From: an uncultured Bifidobacteriaceae bacterium
GTDB lineage: Bacteria > Verrucomicrobiota > Verrucomicrobiia > Limisphaerales > UBA11358
Reading direction: 5' to 3'
Length of the DNA stretch: 64,000 nucleotides
NCBI GenBank assembly: GCA_964532525.1
Contig: CAZHIM010000012.1
Span: 15,459-79,458 of the forward strand
Below the pieces are notes generated by a model. The model worked only from the letters and a program-made list of their open reading frames with translations, did not search any database and was not told the origin of the DNA. Shown piece after piece: positions 14,446 to 22,855 of the stretch (positions are counted from its first letter, which is position 1; the number at the start of each line of letters is the position of its first letter). The translations under genes and the position numbers were made by a program.

Positions 14446-14692
14446 GCTGGGGGCGAGGATATGCCGGGAATGCGGGGGGAAAAAGATAATTAAAAACCAC
14501 TTGAAGGTGGCACGAGATGGGCTAGGCTTTCATTAGCCCCATTGAGAACGGGCGCTCCGTTTTTCCTGTTTGAAGAACGGTTTAAACGGGTCGGCGACAG
14601 TAAATCAAACTGTGTGCACGCCGGCCCGTTTTTCTGTGCCTGCGCCCGGCCACACAGGGGCAGCATCGCCCGGATATTTCATAGTCAAACCG

Positions 14693-14828
14693 GTAGCGCA
14701 GACTTCCAAGCCTGCTGTATCGCGGGTTTCCAAACCCGCAGGTCCACTCTATTTTCCACCCCCTCGACCTTGCGACACCCTGCCGATTTGGAAATCGGCG
14801 ATACGGCAGGTTTGGAAACCTGCGCTAC
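14693..14828 (+). repeat. 136-bp GTAG REP doublet (REPIN-like), family A copy 1
   Basis: Begins GTAGCGCAG and ends CTGCGCTAC; internal GGGTTTCCAAACCC and CCGATTTGGAAATCGG hairpins; reverse complement of 18404-18539. Confidence 0.9.
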
Positions 14829-14883
14829 GGTGGTTCTGTCCGCGTACGCCAAAGTCACTATCTCAGAGTTCCGCGGAGCGCCA

Positions 14884-14916: not shown

Positions 14917-17900
14917 TTATTTTGCGGCGCTGGTGGCCGTTTTGGGCAAGGCCCGCGAGCGCCAGAAGTAATAGATGGCCGGATAGACGGCCAGTTCCAT
15001 GATGGTGGAAGTGATGACGCCGCCGACCATGGGGGTGGCGATGCGTTTCATGACGTCGGCGCCGGCGCCGTGGCTCCACAAGATGGGGGCCAGGCCGGCG
15101 ATGATGACGCAGGCGGTCATGGCCTTGGGGCGGACGCGCTTGACGGCGCCGTGATAGATGGCGTCGTGCAGCGCCGCGGGCGAAGTGAGCGCGCCGCGGG
15201 CCTGCCATTCGGCATAGGCGATTTCCAGATACAGGAGCATGACGACGCCGGTTTCGGCGTCCAAGCCGGCGAGGGCGATGATGCCCACCCACACGGCCAC
15301 GCTGAGGTTGTAGCCGCAGAGGTAGATCGCCCAGAAGGCGCCCACCAGCGAGAACGGCACGGCGAGCATCACGATGGCCGTCTTGAGGGCGGATTGCGTG
15401 TTCAGGTAAATGATGAGCGTGATGAGCAGCAGCGTCAGGGGCACGACGACGAGCAGGCGTTCGCGGGCGTGGAGCATGTATTCGTACTGGCCGCTCCAGA
15501 AAAGGTTGTAGCCGCCGGGCAGGACGATTTCGCCATGGGCCACGGCATCGTTCACCGCGTGCATGGCCATTTGCACGTAGGTGCCCACGTCCACCCCACG
15601 GATATCCACATAGACCCAGGCGTTGGGCACGGCGCCTTCGCTCTTGATACCCATGGGACCGTCCACGACGCTGATGGCGGCCAACTGGCCGAGGGGAATT
15701 TGCGCGCCGCCGGGCGTGGGCACCACGATGTCCTCGCGCAGGGCGCGGAGGTCGGACCGGAAATCGCGGTCGTACCGCAGGTTGATGGTGTAGCGCTGGA
15801 GGCCTTCGACGGTGGTGGTGAGGGGCATGCCGCCAAGGGCCACGGACAGGACGTCCTGCACATCGCCGATGGTGAGGCCGTAGCGGGCGATGGCGTCGCG
15901 ATCAATATTGAACTCGATGAAGCGGCCGCCCATGACGCGTTCGGCGAAGACGCTGGTGGTGCCGGGGACGCGGCGGACGACCGCCTCGACCTGGGTGCCG
16001 ATGCGTTCAAGGGTGGCGAGGTCGGGGCCGGCGATCTTGATGCCGACGGGGGTTTTGATGCCGGTGGAGAGCATGTCAATGCGCGTGCGGATGGGCATGG
16101 TCCAGGCGTTGTTGAGGCCGGGAATCTGGACGGCGTCGTTGAGCGCGTCGGTAAGCTCATCGGGCGTGCGGGGGCGGTGGGCGATGATCTTGCCGGAGTC
16201 GTCGCGGATGTCCACGGCGGGCCAGGCGGACTCGGGCTTGAGCCGGATGGTGGTTTCGATCATGTCCATGGGCGCGGGGTCGGTGGCGGTCTCGGCGCGG
16301 CCGGCCTTGCCGAAGACCTCGGCTACCTCGGGGAAGGATTTGATGAGGCGGTCGGTGACCTGGAGGATTTCGCGGGCCTTCGTGGGCGAGATGCCCGGGA
16401 AGGTCGTGGGCATGTAGAGCAAATCGCCTTCGTAGAGTGGCGGCATGAACTCAGAGCCGATGTTTTGGCAGGGAAAGAATTTGCCGAGGCGGGCGGCAAA
16501 GGCGCGCAGGCTGGTGCGCCAGGTGGTTTGGGAGCGTGCCATCCCCTCACCCTGACCCTCTCCCCCGGGGAGAGGGGACAGCGGCTGGACACCCTTTGAT
16601 AATTGGACGTTGGTCGAGCCGTTTGCCGCGCCGGGTTGGCCCGGAGCAGAGAGCGAAGCCGTCGCCACCGCAGAATCGGACGGCAAATGATTCAAGACAA
16701 TTTGGTTCCAAGGGAAGAACACCCAGACGACGATGAGCAGCGCGGCGAGGACGACGGCGCGGCGCCGGCGGACGACGAAATTCAGGACCGGATGGTAGAG
16801 CCAGATGAGGAGGCGATTGATGGGATTTTTTTCCTCGGCGGGGATTTTTCCGCGGATGAACCAGCCCATGAGGACGGGGGCGAGCGTGATGGACAGCAGC
16901 GCGGCGGCGGCCATGGAATAGGTTTTGGTGAAGGCCAGCGGCTTGAAGAGGCGGCCCTCCTGCTCCTGCAACGTGAACACGGGCAGGAAGGAAACGGTGA
17001 TGACCAGCAGCGAATAAAAGAGCGTGGGTCCGACCTCGATGGCGGCGTCGCGGATGATTTCCCAGTGCGGCTTGCGGCCCTGCTCGTGCTCGAGGTGCTT
17101 GTGGGCGTTCTCGATCATGATGATGACGGCGTCCACCATGGCGCCGATGGCGATGGCGATGCCGCCGAGGGACATGATGTTGGAGCTGATGCCCTGGCCG
17201 AACATGACGAGCAGCGCGATGAGCACGGCCACCGGGAGGATGATGATGGCCACCAAAGCGCTCCGCAGGTGCAGCAGGAAGAGCAGGCAAATGAGCGCGA
17301 CGACGAGGCTTTCTTCCAGGAGCTTTTCCTCCAGCGTCTTCACGGCGCGGTCAATCAGGTCGGAGCGGTCGTAATTGACGGTCACGTGGACATCTTCGGG
17401 CAGGGCCTTCATGGCCTGGGCCAGGCGCGCCTTGACGTCTTGGATGACGTGGTAGGCGTTGGCGCCGTAGCGAACGATGACGATGCCGCCGACGGTTTCG
17501 CCTTGGCCGTTGGCCTCGGCGATTCCGCGTCGCATGTCGGGTCCGAACTGGATGGTGGCGACGTCGCGCAGGAGGATGGGCACGCCGCGGTCGCCGGTGC
17601 CGACGGCAATTTTTTTCAAGTCGTCCAGGCTGGTGATGTAGCCCTTGACGCGCAGGATGAATTCGCGTTCGGCGAGCTCGATGGACCGACCGCCGACCTC
17701 GCCGTTGCTGCGCTCGATGGCGCGGCTGACGTCGCTAAGCGAGAGGTTGTAGGCGCGCAGCCGGGTGGGGTCCACGGTGACCTGGTATTGCTTCACAAAG
17801 CCGCCAACGGAGGCGACCTCGGAGACGCCGGGCACGGCGGTGAGCTGGTATTTGAGATACCAGTCCTGAATGGAGCGCAGCTCGGCCAAGTCGCGGTTGG

Positions 17901-18339
17901 TGGAGTTGAGCGAATACATGAAGGCCCAGCCCACGCCGGTGGCGTCCGGGCCGAGCGAGGGGGTGACGCCCCGCGGCAACTGGCCGGAGATGCTGCTCAA
18001 GTATTCGAGCACGCGGCTCCGGGCCCAGTAGGGATCCGTGCCGTCCTCAAAAATCACATAGACGAAGGAGTAGCCGTAAAAGGAGTAGCCCCGCACGACC
18101 TTGGCGCGCGGCACGGAGAGCATCTTGGTGGTGATGGGATAAGTGAGCTGGTCCTCGATGATGTTGGGGGCCTGGCCATTCCACTCGGTGTAGATGATGA
18201 CCTGGGTATCCGAGAGGTCGGGAATGGCGTCGAGGGGGATATGGGTGGCGGCATAGACGCCGCCAAACAAAAGCACCGCGGTGCCGAGCACCACGAGGAA
18301 CTTGTTGCGCAGCGAAAAATCAATGATGCGTTGGAGCAT
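14917..18339 (-). CDS. cusA: CusA/CzcA-family heavy-metal RND efflux permease
   Basis: PLDAIPDLSDTQVII, GPDATGVGWAFMY, GSEFMPPLYEGDLLYMP, AVKRVRPKAMT; Met-rich Cu/Ag type. Carries an internal insertion. Confidence 0.95.
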   Translation of the reverse strand: MLQRIIDFSLRNKFLVVLGTAVLLFGGVYAATHIPLDAIPDLSDTQVIIYTEWNGQAPNIIEDQLTYPITTKMLSVPRAKVVRGYSFYGYSFVYVIFEDGTDPYWARSRVLEYLSSISGQLPRGVTPSLGPDATGVGWAFMYSLNSTNRDLAELRSIQDWYLKYQLTAVPGVSEVASVGGFVKQYQVTVDPTRLRAYNLSLSDVSRAIERSNGEVGGRSIELAEREFILRVKGYITSLDDLKKIAVGTGDRGVPILLRDVATIQFGPDMRRGIAEANGQGETVGGIVIVRYGANAYHVIQDVKARLAQAMKALPEDVHVTVNYDRSDLIDRAVKTLEEKLLEESLVVALICLLFLLHLRSALVAIIILPVAVLIALLVMFGQGISSNIMSLGGIAIAIGAMVDAVIIMIENAHKHLEHEQGRKPHWEIIRDAAIEVGPTLFYSLLVITVSFLPVFTLQEQEGRLFKPLAFTKTYSMAAAALLSITLAPVLMGWFIRGKIPAEEKNPINRLLIWLYHPVLNFVVRRRRAVVLAALLIVVWVFFPWNQIVLNHLPSDSAVATASLSAPGQPGAANGSTNVQLSKGVQPLSPLPGGEGQGEGMARSQTTWRTSLRAFAARLGKFFPCQNIGSEFMPPLYEGDLLYMPTTFPGISPTKAREILQVTDRLIKSFPEVAEVFGKAGRAETATDPAPMDMIETTIRLKPESAWPAVDIRDDSGKIIAHRPRTPDELTDALNDAVQIPGLNNAWTMPIRTRIDMLSTGIKTPVGIKIAGPDLATLERIGTQVEAVVRRVPGTTSVFAERVMGGRFIEFNIDRDAIARYGLTIGDVQDVLSVALGGMPLTTTVEGLQRYTINLRYDRDFRSDLRALREDIVVPTPGGAQIPLGQLAAISVVDGPMGIKSEGAVPNAWVYVDIRGVDVGTYVQMAMHAVNDAVAHGEIVLPGGYNLFWSGQYEYMLHARERLLVVVPLTLLLITLIIYLNTQSALKTAIVMLAVPFSLVGAFWAIYLCGYNLSVAVWVGIIALAGLDAETGVVMLLYLEIAYAEWQARGALTSPAALHDAIYHGAVKRVRPKAMTACVIIAGLAPILWSHGAGADVMKRIATPMVGGVITSTIMELAVYPAIYYFWRSRALPKTATSAAK
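16543..16577 (+). repeat. CCCTCACCCTGACCCTCTCCCCCGGGGAGAGGGG palindromic element inside the cusA CDS
   Basis: Translated in cusA as PLSPLPGGEGQGEG; same family as 20428-20466, 20590-20608 and 5215-5260. Confidence 0.85.
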
Positions 18340-18403
18340 GGAATTCCCCGGGACTTAAGCCGGATATTTCACAGTTGCATTGTCGGACGATGGCAACACT
18401 GGC

Positions 18404-18539
18404 GTAGCGCAGGTTTCCAAACCTGCTGTATCGCCGATTTCCAAATCGGCAGGGTGTCGCCATGCCGAGGGTGTTGGAAATGCAGAGAGCCTCCGGGCTT
18501 GGAAACCCGCGATACAGCAGACTTGGAAGTCTGCGCTAC
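18404..18539 (-). repeat. 136-bp GTAG REP doublet, family A copy 2 (inverted relative to copy 1)
   Basis: Same length and high identity to 14693-14828 when reverse-complemented; lies between cusB and cusA. Confidence 0.9.
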
Positions 18540-18572
18540 AGGATTGCCGAGAAATCAGGGATGGTGGAGACC

Positions 18573-20753
18573 TCATATTTTTGGAACGAGCGTCATGCCG
18601 CAGATCGGGCATTTGCCGGGATGGTCCTGGATGATCTGCGGGTGCATGGGGCAGGTGTACTGTTGCATCGGTTGGACGGCGGCGGCGGGGGCGAGGGCCG
18701 GCTTGGACATGACGGGGATGAGGGTCATGCCACACAGGGGGCATTTGCCGGGCTTGTCTTCGTGGACGCTGGCGTGCTCGGGCATGGGGCAGGTGTAATA
18801 GAGCACGGTGCCGCCGGGCTGGATTTTTTTCAGCGCGGAGGCCGTGACGGGCACCAGCGCCATGCCGCAAATCGGGCAATTGCCCGGGTGATCATAGACG
18901 ATGGAGACGTGCTCGGGCATGGGGCAGACGTAGACGGTGGCTTCGGGCCCGGCCGGCGCGGAGACGGCCACCGCGGGTGCGGCGGCAAAGCTGTCCGGGA
19001 CGGTGGGGGAAGTGGCCGCCGGCGTGGCGCCGCGCATCTTGTCAATCGCCTCGCGCAACTGGCTTTCGGAATCCAGCAGGAACTGGCCGGAGGTGACAAT
19101 GCGGTCACCGGCGTTGAGGCCGCGAACCACTTGGATCATGCCGTCGCCGGTCTCGACGCCCAGGGCCACGTCGCGGGCCTCGAAGCGGCCCTGGTCCAGG
19201 GCCACGAAGACGGTGTTGCGGTCGCCGCTGCGCAGGATGGCGGAGTCCGGGGCCAGGAGGGCCGGGCCGGGCATCTCGGCCTGAATTTGGGCGGAAACGA
19301 ACATGCCGGGCTTGAGAAAATAGCCGGGATTTTCGAACTCGAGCCGCACGCGCGCGGTGCGGGTTTTCTCGTCCACGGTGGGATAGATGTAGGTGACGCG
19401 CCCGCGAAATTCGCGATCCGGCAGCGAGGACACCTTGACGACCGCTTCCTCGCCGAGCTGCACGAAGGGCAGGTCCTGCTCATAGATCTGGGCGAGCACC
19501 CAGACGATGCCGAGATCGGCGATGCGATAGAGTTGCGCGCCGGCATCCACCATCTGGCCCTGGACGATGTTTTTCTCGATGACGAAGCCCGAAATGGGGG
19601 CGGCCACGGACAGGGCCTTGCGCGCAACGCCGCTCTTTTCGAGGTCCGCGATTTGGGCGTCCGAGACGTCGAAGAACTTGAGCTTGCTCGCGGCCGTCTC
19701 GCGGAGTTCCACGGCGCCGGGGTCGTTCGTGGCGCCGGCATTGCGGGCGAGGAGATATTCGGCCTCGGCGCTGTAAAGCTCGGGCGAATAAATCTCGAAC
19801 ATGGGTTCGCCGCGGTGGACGAGCTGGCCGGTGGCGTCCACGTTCAGGTTTTCGATCCAGCCCTTGAACTTGGTGGTGACGTCGGCCAGCGCGGTTTCGT
19901 TGTAATCAATGGTGCCGACGGTGCGGATGGTTTTGCTGAGCGGGCCGGTGCCGACGATGGCGGTGCGCAGGTTCATGTTTTGCGCGGTGGCGGCATCCAC
20001 GGCGATGGTCGGCGGGCCGGCGTTGGTGGCGCCCTCGCGGGCGGCTTCGCCGCGGATGGGCGTGAGTTTCATGCCGCAAATCGGGCAGTTGCCGGGATGA
20101 TCCTGGATGATCTGCGGGTGCATGCCGCAGGTGTAAAGAGTCTTGCCCGGCGCCGGCGCGGGGATGTCGGCGCGGGCGGGGGTCAACGGCAGGCTCACGG
20201 CGAAGAAAGCCAGAGCAATCAGGATGAGAATTCCCCAAAAAGAGGTTCGCGCTTTGAATCCCTGACCCGGAGCGCGGCGTTCACGCCGCTTCAATATGCA
20301 AAGGTCTCGCAGCATAGGAAGTTGAAGCGGACCCTTTTGCGGAGCCGCTCGGAGTCGATTCAATGGAGAATCTGGGTGAGCATGCTTCATGGCATCGGAG
20401 GCCCTGAATTTAAATAGTTTAACGCTTACCCTCACCCCGGTTCTCTCCCCCGGGGAGAGGGAGAACTCGTTTCCGCGAATCGGCGATATGCTCGCGCTGG
20501 ATCTGCCGCGGTTCAGGGGTTCAATGCGCGAAATGGATCGGGGAATTCTCTCCTGGAACCTTGAAGCAAATTTAGTGTTAAGAAGTCCGCCCTCACCCCG
20601 GCCCTCTCGATGAACCCGGAAAACATTCAACATTCGACATTCAACTTCCAACCCTGAACGAAGGCGGCAGCGCGAGTCCTTTCGATATTGGGCGTTGAAT
20701 GTTGAACGTTGAATGTTTCTCTTGCGGTTCATGGGCAGGGTGTTCGCTTTCAC
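18573..20753 (-). CDS. cusB: CusB-family RND periplasmic adaptor with four YxCxM(H)P heavy-metal-binding domains and a repeat-derived N-terminal extension
   Basis: [29 protein letters not shown]; YTCGMHP, YVCPMP, YTCPMP, YTCPMHP. GTG start overlaps the cusC TGA. True start uncertain. Confidence 0.9.
20269..20717. repeat. Stack of at least four repeat types within the cusB 5' region
   Basis: GGAGCGCGGCGTTCACGCCGCTTCA (20269-20293); CCCTCACC..GGGGAGAGG (20428-20466, 20590-20608); GGTTCAGGGGTTCAATGCGCG (~20510-20530); inverted AACATTC/GTTGAAT heptamer arrays (~20622-20651, ~20694-20717). Confidence 0.8.
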
Positions 20754-22114
20754 GGTGGGGAGGCCAGGGAAACCGCCGGCGGCGCGGCCAATACGGGCGC
20801 GCCCGCGGGCGGCACGCCGGCAATGGTGAGGGACAAATCAGCCAGGGTAATTTCGCGGCGCGTGCGTTCCTGGACGTCCTCAAGCTGGAAGTTCAGCCAG
20901 GTGCGCTCGGCGTCCAGCAGGTTGAAGAAATCCACCTGGCCGGAGCGGTAACCGGCGCGCGCGATCTCCAGGGACTGGCGCGACTTGGGGATGAGCTGGT
21001 GTTCGAGCAGCGCAAGGTTGCGGGTGATTTCTCGGTAATCGTAGGCGCGCGCGGCGAAGTCCACCGCGAGATTGATTTGCTCCGTGGTCAGGCGGGCGGT
21101 GGCGGCGGCCTTGTCGGCTTGGGCGGCGGCGATTTCGGCGGCGATTTTGTCGCGCCAAATCGGGAGCGTCATGCTGGCCTGGGGCCAGTAGAACGGCGGA
21201 TGATAGACTTCAGCCTGGAGGCCGGCGGAAAAATCGGGCGTACGGGACAGGCGGGCTTGGGCGAGGGAGGCTTCGGCTTGGCGCACCTCGGCGGCAGCGG
21301 CCAGCAGGCGCGGATTGCGGGCGAACCCGGCGGCCAGCAAGTCATCGGCGTTCACGTCGGGCGAGCTTTCAAAAGTGGCGGGCAGCGGGGGGGCCGGCTG
21401 GCCGGGGGTGAGGCCGAGGGCGGCCTTGAACTGGGCCAGGAGCAGGTGGCGGGAGTCCTCGAGATTGGTGATGGTGGTGGTGAGCTGGTCGCGCTCGATT
21501 TGGGCGCGGTACACGTCCTGCAGGGTGGCCTTGCCCACTTCATTTTGCGAGCGGGCGGAGGATTCCAGGCTGGCCAGCAGGGCGAGGGTCTGGCGGTTGA
21601 TGCGGATGCGCTCGTCCAGGAAATGGAGATTGTAATAGGCGCTCTTGAGGTCGAAGGCGGTTTGCAGGACGGCGGACTCGAAGGTGAAATATTTGGCGCG
21701 GCTTTCGGCGGTGGCCACGGCGGCGGCGGCGGGGAGCTTGCCCGGGCCGGGCAAATCCTGCATCAAGCCGGGCATGAGCGAGGTGAGCTTGTCCTGAATG
21801 TAGGCTTGAAAGGTGAGCTTGGGGTCCGGCAGCGAGCGCTCCACCGTGATGCGCTCGACGGACCCGGCCCAGTCGGCAAACGCGGCGGCGACGGCGGGCG
21901 AATCCAGCACCGCGTAGGCGAGGAAGTTGCTCAAGCCCGCGTCCGGGGCCAGCACCGGCAGGGTGCGCGGGTCCGGGCGGGGCTGGTACCGGGCGGCGAC
22001 GGCCGCGAGGTCGCGCCGGGCGGATTGCTCGCCGGCGGTGGGCGTGCCGCGGCAACCGGCGCCAATCACGACGACGGACAAGCCGGCCAGGAAGAGCTGG
22101 CAGAGACGTTTCAC
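20750..22114 (-). CDS. cusC: TolC/CusC-family outer membrane efflux lipoprotein
   Basis: Lipobox VIGAGC; SLPDPKL, AGYRSGQVDFFNLLDAER; first structural gene upstream of cusBA. Confidence 0.85.
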   Translation of the reverse strand: MKRLCQLFLAGLSVVVIGAGCRGTPTAGEQSARRDLAAVAARYQPRPDPRTLPVLAPDAGLSNFLAYAVLDSPAVAAAFADWAGSVERITVERSLPDPKLTFQAYIQDKLTSLMPGLMQDLPGPGKLPAAAAVATAESRAKYFTFESAVLQTAFDLKSAYYNLHFLDERIRINRQTLALLASLESSARSQNEVGKATLQDVYRAQIERDQLTTTITNLEDSRHLLLAQFKAALGLTPGQPAPPLPATFESSPDVNADDLLAAGFARNPRLLAAAAEVRQAEASLAQARLSRTPDFSAGLQAEVYHPPFYWPQASMTLPIWRDKIAAEIAAAQADKAAATARLTTEQINLAVDFAARAYDYREITRNLALLEHQLIPKSRQSLEIARAGYRSGQVDFFNLLDAERTWLNFQLEDVQERTRREITLADLSLTIAGVPPAGAPVLAAPPAVSLASPP

Positions 22115-22191: not shown

Positions 22192-22533
22192 TTATTTCTT
22201 GTCGGCGGCGCGAATCAATTTGACGTATTTATCGGGGTTCTTGTCAAAATCCTTTTTGCAGCTCTTGCAGCACAATTTGATTTCCTGGCCTTGATACACG
22301 AAGACATAGGGCGCGCCCATGTCGCCGTTGAGCTTGTCGCCGGAGACGGGGCAGGTGGCCAATTTGTCGGGGATGGCGTTGGTAGTGGACTCGGCCACGG
22401 TGGACATACCGCTGCAGCAGGACATGGAGCACGTCATCGCCGCGTTGGTGTCGGCGGCGGTGGCGGTGGGGGCGAGGGCCGCGACGCCGAGGGCGCAGGC
22501 GGCCAGGAGCAGGCATTGATTCATTTTTTTCAT
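22192..22533 (-). CDS. Small secreted YHS/TRASH-like metal-binding protein
   Basis: Signal peptide; MTCSMSCCSGM; CPVSG...IKLCCKSCKKDFDKNPDKY. Confidence 0.75.
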   Translation of the reverse strand: MKKMNQCLLLAACALGVAALAPTATAADTNAAMTCSMSCCSGMSTVAESTTNAIPDKLATCPVSGDKLNGDMGAPYVFVYQGQEIKLCCKSCKKDFDKNPDKYVKLIRAADKK

Positions 22534-22760
22534 AGATTCAGGCAAATGTCGGATATTGTCGCGTTCGTAGCGATCCATCGGCTTACACCGGTGCCGGGGA
22601 AACCCCGCAAACTTTTTTTACATATTTCCGGCGCTGATGAAGGACATTATCAGGGCTTTAAAAATAAGCAAGCCGGGCGGGGCGGGTGGGCCGCGTCTCA
22701 GGGGAGGGCAATCGGCCGCGCGAAGTCATCTGCCGCTTTCCAAGGACCTGTGCCCGCACG

Positions 22761-22796
22761 AAAGCGGCGTGGCGCTGCGCTTCCCGCCGCAGTCCA
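22761..22796 (+). repeat. AAAGCGGCGTGGCGCTGCGCTTCCCGCCGCAGTCCA REP-like element
   Basis: Imperfect palindrome in the intergenic gap, with a degenerate GCCGCTTT partner just upstream. Confidence 0.55.
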
Positions 22797-22855
22797 TGAC
22801 GCCCCGCGTCATTCTCAAACCGGTTTAACCGGCCTTGGGCGCGCCCCGCGACTGA

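Follow-up and report, generated by a model that had tools for sequence, protein, structure and literature searches.

Stacked in-frame palindromic repeats inside the signal peptide of a CusB-like adaptor from Limisphaerales

How does the reading frame of a gene stay open through some 500 nt of stacked repeats, and where would such a gene be translated from? This question is raised by a cusB-like adaptor gene located in a 64,000-nt stretch of contig CAZHIM010000012.1 (this whole stretch is referred to as the window), which belongs to a metagenome-assembled genome (MAG) of Limisphaerales (Verrucomicrobiota) comprising 152 contigs in a 5.3-Mb assembly. The genome is densely strewn with short palindromic dispersed repeats resembling transposable elements of the miniature inverted-repeat type (MITEs) or bacterial interspersed mosaic elements (BIMEs). 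An earlier note on this DNA had proposed a serial in-frame insertion of mobile palindromes of several families into a disposable region ahead of the cusB signal peptide, with selection for an open frame. Our comparison of the locus with its orthologues and with the rest of the genome found this interpretation to be largely right overall, wrong on the disposable region and incomplete with respect to internal start codons. A 510-nt insert composed of at least five dispersed repeat modules separates the first six codons of cusB from the hydrophobic core of its signal peptide. The reading frame is preserved in two haplotypes of different length, and inserts of other repeat families recur at the same place in other orthologues. 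We consider it reasonably probable that cusB is still translated from its ancestral GTG codon, with the repeats read through as a part of the protein.

Position and composition of the insert

The analysis of 75 cusC-cusB junctions from relatives (the nearest orthologous records coming from MAG sets of SPRUCE peat and Swedish lakes) showed that in approximately 58 of them cusB starts at the cusC stop codon or a few bases from it and is immediately followed by a short signal peptide. Most orthologues carry no insert at all. In the two nearest orthologues, L021 (76% identity) and L022 (78% identity), the two genes share the same GTGA overlap as in the window. The L021 junction (cGTGAaaattaacgctctc) gives an N-terminus VKINAL with the hydrophobic core directly after it (VKINAL-IIIVVV...; over a longer stretch, ...cGTGAaaattaacgctctcatcatcatt giving VKINALIIIVVVALAALGACLSQA), and the L022 junction (cGTGAAAATCAGCACCCTC) likewise gives VKISTL followed directly by the core (VKISTL-ILVLL...; over a longer stretch, ...cGTGAAAATCAGCACCCTCATTCTC giving VKISTLILVLLAVALAIGG...). 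Other orthologous N-termini are MKTFLSLFIALAAMLWLGAGAQA (G024), MKSLFSIVLAAM... (G020) and MKSFIPRLVFF... (G010). The window gene reads GTG AAA GCG AAC ACC CTG, then 510 nt of additional sequence, then ATC CTG ATT GCT..., that is VKANTL, the insert, and ILIALAFF...ARA. The parts of the locus are as follows.

20753..18573, minus strand: cusB-like adaptor open reading frame (ORF), with HlyD_D23 and four heavy-metal-binding domains
20736..20753, minus strand: ancestral cusB start codon GTG with codons 1-6 (V K A N T L), overlapping cusC as GTGA
20169..20225, minus strand: what is left of the ancestral signal peptide (its h-region and c-region, with ARA ahead of D), aligned with orthologue hydrophobic cores
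18573..20168, minus strand: mature CusB-like adaptor of 531 aa (Pfam HlyD_D23, E 2e-78; heavy-metal-binding domain, four copies)
22114..20750, minus strand: cusC-like outer-membrane factor gene of 454 aa (Pfam OEP, E 3e-40; ORF list)

The overlap of the cusB GTG (20753) with the cusC TGA (20752-20750), which the earlier note had seen, is thus an ancestral arrangement found in the nearest relatives as well. Orthologues without the insert have a short signal peptide beginning at the cusC junction, which places the insert within the coding sequence, and the repeats are, by this alignment, splitting the signal peptide itself after approximately codon 6, between its n- and h-regions. What had been taken for a disposable pre-signal region is therefore misplaced, the signal peptide of the orthologues starting at the junction codon. 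A finding that would have spoken for merely intergenic repeats, namely orthologues starting just before the hydrophobic segment, was not made; they start at the cusC junction, as the window GTG does. The h-region and the ARA motif are both present in the window, and a cleavage site (ARA|D) is predicted from the AXA motif. A canonical Sec n-region, that is a few residues at the N-terminus, is absent, the core lying 176 residues from the GTG and about 30 from an in-frame ATG at 20315. The mature protein is 66-78% identical to its orthologues and has one N-terminal and three C-terminal heavy-metal-binding domains (Pfam).

The insert occupies positions 20226-20735 (510 nt, 170 codons), its boundaries being good to about ±6 nt. 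In a BLAST search of 20200-20800 against its own 5.3-Mb assembly, multi-copy sequence covered approximately 20220-20740, with 20741-20753 and everything below about 20220 being unique. A k-mer repeat census (K=13, at least 8 copies) returned 6120 regions, too many of them GC-rich false ones, and family-wise BLAST against the own genome was used instead. The insert comprises at least five dispersed modules, present in about 6 to over 100 genome copies each (listed below from the cusC side, with no strand assigned).

20602-20735: element A, a MITE-like palindrome of ~134 nt (58 distinct loci, 85-93% identity)
20554-20601: linker module of 48 nt with TTTAGTGTTAAGAAGTCCG and a second CCCTCACCCCGG word, recurring beside A copies (e.g. 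on C103, C137, C13)
20411-20553: element B, 143 nt (26 distinct loci, 82-92% identity), ending in module M
20508-20553: module M, ~45 nt (>60 matches), found after most A copies in the genome
20327-20410: module C, 84 nt, low-copy (~9 matches, e.g. on C56, C58, C25, C20), joined to B in some copies
~20239-20330: element H, a palindrome of ~92 nt with few copies (~6-10), fuller at C16:58331-58451 (89-91%) and on C113
20226-20269: module M', 44 nt, an inverted copy of M (14 matches cover the segment)

The heptamer arrays, the palindromes and the further repeat element mentioned in the earlier note were all recovered here. The arrays (AACATTC, 3.4 copies, and GTTGAAT, 3.4 copies) are the 31-nt inverted arms of element A at 20621-20651 and 20688-20718. 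The palindrome of element B (CCCTCACCCCGG/CCGGGGAGAGGG) spans 20429-20461, with CCCTCACCCCGG at 20429 and again at 20590, and its partner CCGGGGAGAGGG at 20450. An arm of element H carries a GCGGCG-TTCA-CGCCGC hairpin at 20274-20289 (within GGAGCGCGGCGTTCACGCCGC at 20269-20289). Module M' pairs with 20509-20550 as arms of ~42 nt (inverted repeats I3 and I13). Terminal inverted repeats, a feature of MITEs, are present twice, as the 31-nt arms of A and as the ~42-nt M/M' arms around 20226-20553. As M' encodes the 14 residues directly before the hydrophobic core, including FWGIL, some of the apparent signal peptide comes from a repeat. The insert (as RNA or single-stranded DNA) folds far better than its shuffled versions (z = -7.5), with one domain formed by the A hairpin and a second by an M/M' stem around B, C and H. 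Taken with the orthologue junctions, the genome-wide copies identify the repeats as dispersed palindromes of a mobile type, belonging to several families and lying downstream of the ancestral cusB start.

The insert showed no convincing target-site duplication, a possible CCTG flanking repeat being unpersuasive with boundaries known only to about ±6 nt. No parent insertion sequence was identified for the insert modules, a systematic search for one not having been made, and none of modules A, B, C, H and M adjoins a Y1 transposase gene (seven Y1_Tnp hits in the genome). Alone among the repeats tested, the GTAG doublet family of the cusA flanks (see below) adjoins two such genes (on C115 and C137), in the manner of units formed by repetitive extragenic palindromes (REPs) and their associated tyrosine transposases (RAYTs). 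Rfam revealed no known RNA family inside the insert, and a promoter and terminator scan of it found none, leaving a repeat-borne promoter or terminator unsupported. No Pfam family matched the 170-aa insert peptide. When the N-terminal 182 residues served as the query of a protein search, the matches were limited to the protein of the window itself and a single weak one, which argues against a conserved "leader domain".

Preservation of the reading frame

The claim of about 170 stop-free codons downstream of the GTG was borne out. Read from 20753, the frame has no stop over the 164 codons leading to the hydrophobic segment, versus 4-9 in the other five frames; within the 510-nt insert, the cusB frame has none and the other frames have 4, 5, 8, 8 and 8. 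The probability of a stop-free frame in the insert was 0.0004 by mononucleotide shuffling, 0.0098 by dinucleotide shuffling and 0.0014 by a Poisson estimate from the other frames, values that are post hoc for a single locus picked for being open, for which reason independent evidence was sought. Copies of element A typically have one of six frames open (~17% of frames), the frame homologous to that of cusB being open in 37 of the 58 copies, and copies of element B have 2-3 of six (~42% of frames). Going by such per-family rates, five modules stacked at random would stay open in well under 1% of cases.

A second form of the same insert is found in a sister lineage (L104, L105 and L110, from three metagenome samples of the Joint Genome Institute; 9% nucleotide divergence; protein variant P0003, from a 90%-identity cluster of the called protein). 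Its junction reads GTGAAAGCAAAAACCCTT, and its insert, at the same site, is 177 nt long and consists of a P module, a better-preserved H palindrome and M'. The boundaries are as in the window (on the left after ACC CTT, on the right GGGGAATTCTC | CTCCTGATT), and the distance from cusC to the internal ATG is 101 nt in the sister lineage versus 434 nt in the window. The 177-nt insert is stop-free and keeps the frame of the GTG. Between the two haplotypes the difference is 333 nt, or 111 codons, and since both are in frame, at least two separate rearrangements at this site have kept register. The serial insertion proposed earlier is supported in this respect, the insert having been built or remodelled in more than one step. 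The common insertion site and the common H and M' core place the first insertion before the split of the two lineages.

The host gene has kept working since then, as is indicated indirectly, through selection, by the comparison of mature CusB between these two insertion-bearing lineages (synonymous divergence dS 0.29, nonsynonymous divergence dN 0.041, omega 0.14; omega for cusC is 0.15). By these ratios cusB has been under normal purifying selection since the insertion and is not a pseudogene. An omega of 0.78 was obtained for the 49 codons between ATG 20315 and the ARA site, about 30 of them encoded by the insert.

To what extent does this pattern extend beyond a single insertion? In four other orthologue lineages, different dispersed repeat families occupy the same part of the signal peptide, always in frame with the junction start, so that an in-frame insert comes between the conserved N-terminal codons (of the MNSKLKLIL type) and the hydrophobic core.

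L066: insert of 120 nt, with copies at >10 loci in its own genome
L042: insert of 120 nt, of the same repeat type as L066 (own-genome copies are known for the other four records only)
L086: insert of 156 nt, with copies at >15 loci in its own genome
L052 (same locus as L008): insert of 105 nt, with copies at >10 loci in its own genome
L071: insert of 84 nt, with copies at >40 loci in its own genome

Counting the first insertion in the window lineage, the 333-nt change, L066 and L042 as one, L086, L052 and L071, six events are all in register, for which the chance expectation is (1/3)^6, or ~0.001, with the reservation that several frames are open in the short inserts from orthologues, leaving only their multiple-of-three length informative. 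Seven expanded junctions are out of frame (L012, L048, L075, L080, L092, L093 and L098), and in all of these the gene has its own MNxK-type start adjoining the hydrophobic core, with the repeats upstream. L048, L098 and L075, considered as counter-examples, were rejected on this ground, their repeats being truly intergenic. So far as these alignments tell, repeats downstream of the ancestral start are seen only in frame, as expected if the junction start is still used. Together, the shuffling results, the 177-nt haplotype and the orthologue inserts make an open frame by chance unlikely, and the selection for it postulated in the earlier note is probable.

Frame changes of cusB bearing no relation to repeats were observed in L048 (1690-2010, inside the signal-peptide region) and L075 (2620-3050, just after it); these two genes are either pseudogenes or affected by assembly indels.

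Start of translation and export of CusB

The account that we favor, and consider reasonably probable, is that cusB is translated from the ancestral GTG and that the repeats were inserted in frame inside its signal peptide. The ancestral gene would have had a GTG overlapping the cusC stop and a short Sec-type signal, roughly M-K-x-N-x-L followed by the hydrophobic core. A first repeat (modules H and M') would have been inserted after approximately codon 6, between the n- and h-regions, and later repeats added to it or exchanged within it, giving the 177-nt form in one lineage and the 510-nt form (A, linker, B, C, H, M') in the window lineage. Ribosomes ending at the cusC TGA would restart on the overlapping GTG and then read into the repeats. 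We infer such a coupled restart from the GTGA junctions having no Shine-Dalgarno sequence (none was seen before the junction GTG in the window, L021, L022 or L104). With a stop or a frameshift in the insert, the hydrophobic core could be made only if ribosomes initiated anew in strongly folded RNA, at an ATG in the H loop that itself has no Shine-Dalgarno sequence. The 170-codon open frame would then be explained, since CusB would go on being made only with insertions that are open and in register.

The predicted precursor of 726 aa would carry a very basic 176-residue leader of translated repeats (38 R+K versus 13 D+E among the 170 inserted residues), the cytoplasmic location of which would fit the positive-inside rule. 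The old hydrophobic core, helped by FWGIL from M', may act as an internal signal or a type-II anchor. The ARA|D site could still release a 531-aa periplasmic adaptor; uncut CusB would stay anchored in the membrane in the manner of HlyD-, MacA- or EmrA-type adaptors. If the GTG is used, CusB would have the layout of HlyD, MacA and EmrA, with a cytoplasmic N-terminus, a single hydrophobic helix and an adaptor domain in the periplasm. The topology of these three is an ancestral one, and their N-terminus serves a function; in CusB, unlike them, the topology would be an accident of selfish DNA, with a cleavage motif retained.

A broader proposal, which we make more tentatively and would put at somewhat less than even, is that in Limisphaerales the first signal-peptide codons at coupled junctions are a recurrent haven for selfish palindromes, and that a Sec-type signal works despite ~176 inserted residues by becoming internal. 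Judging from the preserved gene, the export signal evidently tolerates a large load of selfish DNA.

Several points weigh against a start at the junction GTG. Besides the post hoc nature of the single-locus P-value and the limited information in the short orthologue inserts (both noted above), the strong RNA fold could impede translation through the insert, and we know of no documented precedent for a cleavable signal core that is preceded by a segment of 176 residues. Finally, the insert itself offers an in-frame ATG (20315) and an in-frame TTG (20294) in both haplotypes, and gene callers pick the ATG.

The last point is the basis of the strongest rival explanation, which we consider unlikely, albeit to be taken seriously: that the repeats are functionally intergenic, translation has moved to the ATG (or the TTG) of element H, and the open frame is coincidental or harmless. 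According to the earlier note, the signal segment lacks a Met of its own. This stands insofar as no ancestral start lies beside the core, and fails insofar as the insert supplies these two codons. The ATG (20315-20313), located in the H loop 26 codons before FKAR..., would yield a plausible 49-aa signal peptide with a positively charged n-region, a normal h-region and the ARA motif (the TTG occupies 20294-20292), and it is the start called in several assemblies (580 aa, P0001). Moreover, an untranslated repeat-filled spacer of 233 nt between cusB and cusA is tolerated in the same operon, and many repeats at ORF N-termini are really extragenic, with translation starting downstream (PMC3733652). 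On the other hand, an internal start would leave unexplained why 510 nt are stop-free in exactly the cusB frame (P 0.0004-0.01), why both haplotypes and the 333-nt difference between them are in register with the GTG, and why all intragenic orthologue inserts are in frame. The L066 insert has no ATG, only a TTG and a GTG, which would leave no charged n-region. In the window, no Shine-Dalgarno-like sequence precedes either ATG 20315 or TTG 20294, and the ATG lies in the loop of the H palindrome. The junction GTG and an internal start may also both be used.

It is improbable, in our assessment, that the repeat leader has been co-opted, either to tether CusB to the inner membrane or the cytoplasmic face or, through its RNA structure, to set the CusC:CusB ratio. 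The retention of the insert over a dS of ~0.29, its strongly structured RNA, the recurrence of inserts at the same site in several lineages and the existence of membrane-anchored adaptors with cytoplasmic N-termini (HlyD, MacA, EmrA) would all be in line with such a role. It is opposed by an insert content that is wholly different between lineages, and even between the sister haplotypes, by the omega of 0.78 over the 49 codons preceding the ARA site, by the lack of a Pfam domain in the insert, and by the fact that most orthologues do without one. That cusB is a young pseudogene, or the insert an artefact of repeat collapse or chaining in a 152-contig MAG, is very improbable: contigs L102, L103 and L106 of other assemblies do break within the repeat block, but the 510-nt insert is base for base identical, and flanked by cusC and cusB, in a separate ENA assembly (L101, a 54-kb contig), which argues against an artefact, while the protein recurs on contigs of other lengths, the shorter haplotype in three samples, and the mature protein has all its domains intact at an omega of 0.14 across a dS of 0.29 since the common insertion. 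L102 (1-230) was rejected as a third haplotype, its 5' end diverging inside element B into unrelated sequence, probably as a repeat-induced assembly chimera.

Known systems and other loci

In-frame selfish repeats within genes are already known from Rickettsia palindromic elements (RPEs) and from intragenic REPs of Opitutus. RPEs are palindromic repeats found in frame within Rickettsia genes (Ogata et al. 2000, as reviewed in PMC10969869). The analogy with them drawn in the earlier note holds, in-frame repeat inserts being found also in a CitMHS_2 transporter (68 aa) and in cusA of the window genome (see below). As in RPEs, dispersed palindromes of several families per genome lie in coding genes, in frame and stop-free, with the host gene kept; on the sequence evidence, the cusB insert combines multi-copy palindromes, a location in coding sequence, a preserved frame and a host gene under selection. 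Unlike in RPEs, the host is a free-living peat or lake verrucomicrobium rather than an obligate intracellular bacterium, at least five modules (170 codons) are stacked at one site in place of a single element of ~150 bp, the insertion falls within a signal peptide at a coupled gene junction and not on the surface of a folded domain, and the repeats have no sequence relationship to RPEs.

A second parallel is provided by the intragenic REPs tagged with GTAG or CGTC (Di Nocera et al. 2013, PMC3733652), intragenic GTAG repeats being most numerous in the verrucomicrobium Opitutus terrae. In that study, REP clusters were reported to encode 43-82 aa and to be in excess at ORF N-termini, where the reality of the upstream starts was questioned (PMC3733652). 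The window resembles Opitutus in having repeats inside genes of a verrucomicrobium and GTAG-type doublets at the flanks of cusA. It differs in that modules A, B, C, H and M are not beside a Y1 transposase (a difference that is not based on the GTAG/CGTC tag), in that its insert is about twice the largest reported, and in that the ancestral start lies upstream of the repeats, the opposite of what was concluded for most N-terminal REPs of Pseudomonas putida, Citrobacter koseri and Stenotrophomonas maltophilia (PMC3733652). In-frame insertions or fusions have also been described for enterobacterial repetitive intergenic consensus (ERIC) sequences, Coxiella QMITEs and Anabaena MITEs (PMC10969869, PMC5896051). 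Like MITEs, the window repeats are non-autonomous, have terminal inverted repeats, are usually intergenic and are occasionally read through into protein; unlike MITEs, they combine as a mosaic, which brings them nearer to the BIMEs of E. coli. A word search of these two MITE papers (PMC10969869, PMC5896051) found no description of an insertion into a signal peptide. A full-text literature search joining Rickettsia palindromic elements with the signal peptide returned no paper, which is weak evidence of novelty.

Against this background, what is new at the cusB locus is that the insertion falls within a signal peptide where two genes overlap; that the insert is of this size and a mosaic, with 170 codons and at least five modules; that forms of 0, 177 and 510 nt make up a natural series at a single site, accompanied by a record of selection (omega 0.14); and that independent repeats arrived at the same spot, the boundary of the n- and h-regions, in several lineages. 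This suggests a rule for compact operons of overlapping genes, by which selfish DNA survives in frame only, where the protein is indifferent to it. The locus also offers a natural experiment on how far the hydrophobic core of a signal can move from the N-terminus. As gene callers start at the internal ATG and leave the repeats to be called intergenic, such events are hidden across MAGs of the Planctomycetes-Verrucomicrobia-Chlamydiae (PVC) group.

Another case in the genome is the CitMHS_2 transporter (C116:3-1487, plus strand), in which a 68-aa in-frame insert (residues ~223-290) consists of a partial heptamer array and a B-type element. In relatives, which lack the insert, 9-18 nt separate the match to residues 14-222 from that to residues 291-494. 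On C88, an ORF of 809 aa joins PAP2 phosphatase and PMT_2 glycosyltransferase domains through a B copy at 17522-17647 (minus strand), and near where the second domain begins the only Met codons are those encoded by the repeat; a gene fusion mediated by the repeat, or a further case of start replacement, could account for this. Copies of A and B (C103:10487-10616 and C66:12427-12569) precede, in frame, genes for lipoproteins and secreted proteins with plausible starts of their own; they may represent N-terminal extension by repeats or coincidences, and, the repeat being upstream of the gene's own plausible start, they were not retained as in-frame insert cases. Candidates on C11 and at two C56 loci were likewise dropped, as they look like spurious high-GC frames.

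The remaining genes of the cus cluster, all of which are on the minus strand, are the following.

22578..22192, minus strand: YHS-domain gene, heading the cluster
18339..14917, minus strand: cusA-like RND pump of 1140 aa (ACR_tran family)

With the HlyD/CusB barrel-sandwich domain and a gene order of outer-membrane factor, membrane-fusion protein and RND pump, the adaptor has the features of a CusCBA-type membrane-fusion protein. CusA contains a second hot spot of in-frame repeats, just after its seventh transmembrane segment (window 16440-16700, minus strand). The distance between the motifs RGKIP and GSEFMP is 84 aa in 46 orthologues, 99-161 aa in ~12 lineages (among them L021, L022, L028, L033, L039, L040, L062, L065, L076, L078 and L088) and 138 aa in the window. 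The window segment contains PLSPLPGGEGQGEG, from a palindrome at 16544-16577, and CusA of L021 and L022 carries a B-like peptide (SLSPGERAGVR...).

Repeats are found at every gene boundary of the cus operon. The spacer between cusB and cusA (18340-18572) is 233 nt long versus ~8-9 nt in orthologues L003 and L021, since a GTAG-type repeat doublet of 200 nt occupies it; an Rfam match of this repeat to MIR839, far below threshold, was rejected as spurious. The same doublet family is found directly downstream of cusA (14668-14861), and a high-copy repeat with up to 53 matches lies at 22714-22814, just upstream of the YHS-domain gene.

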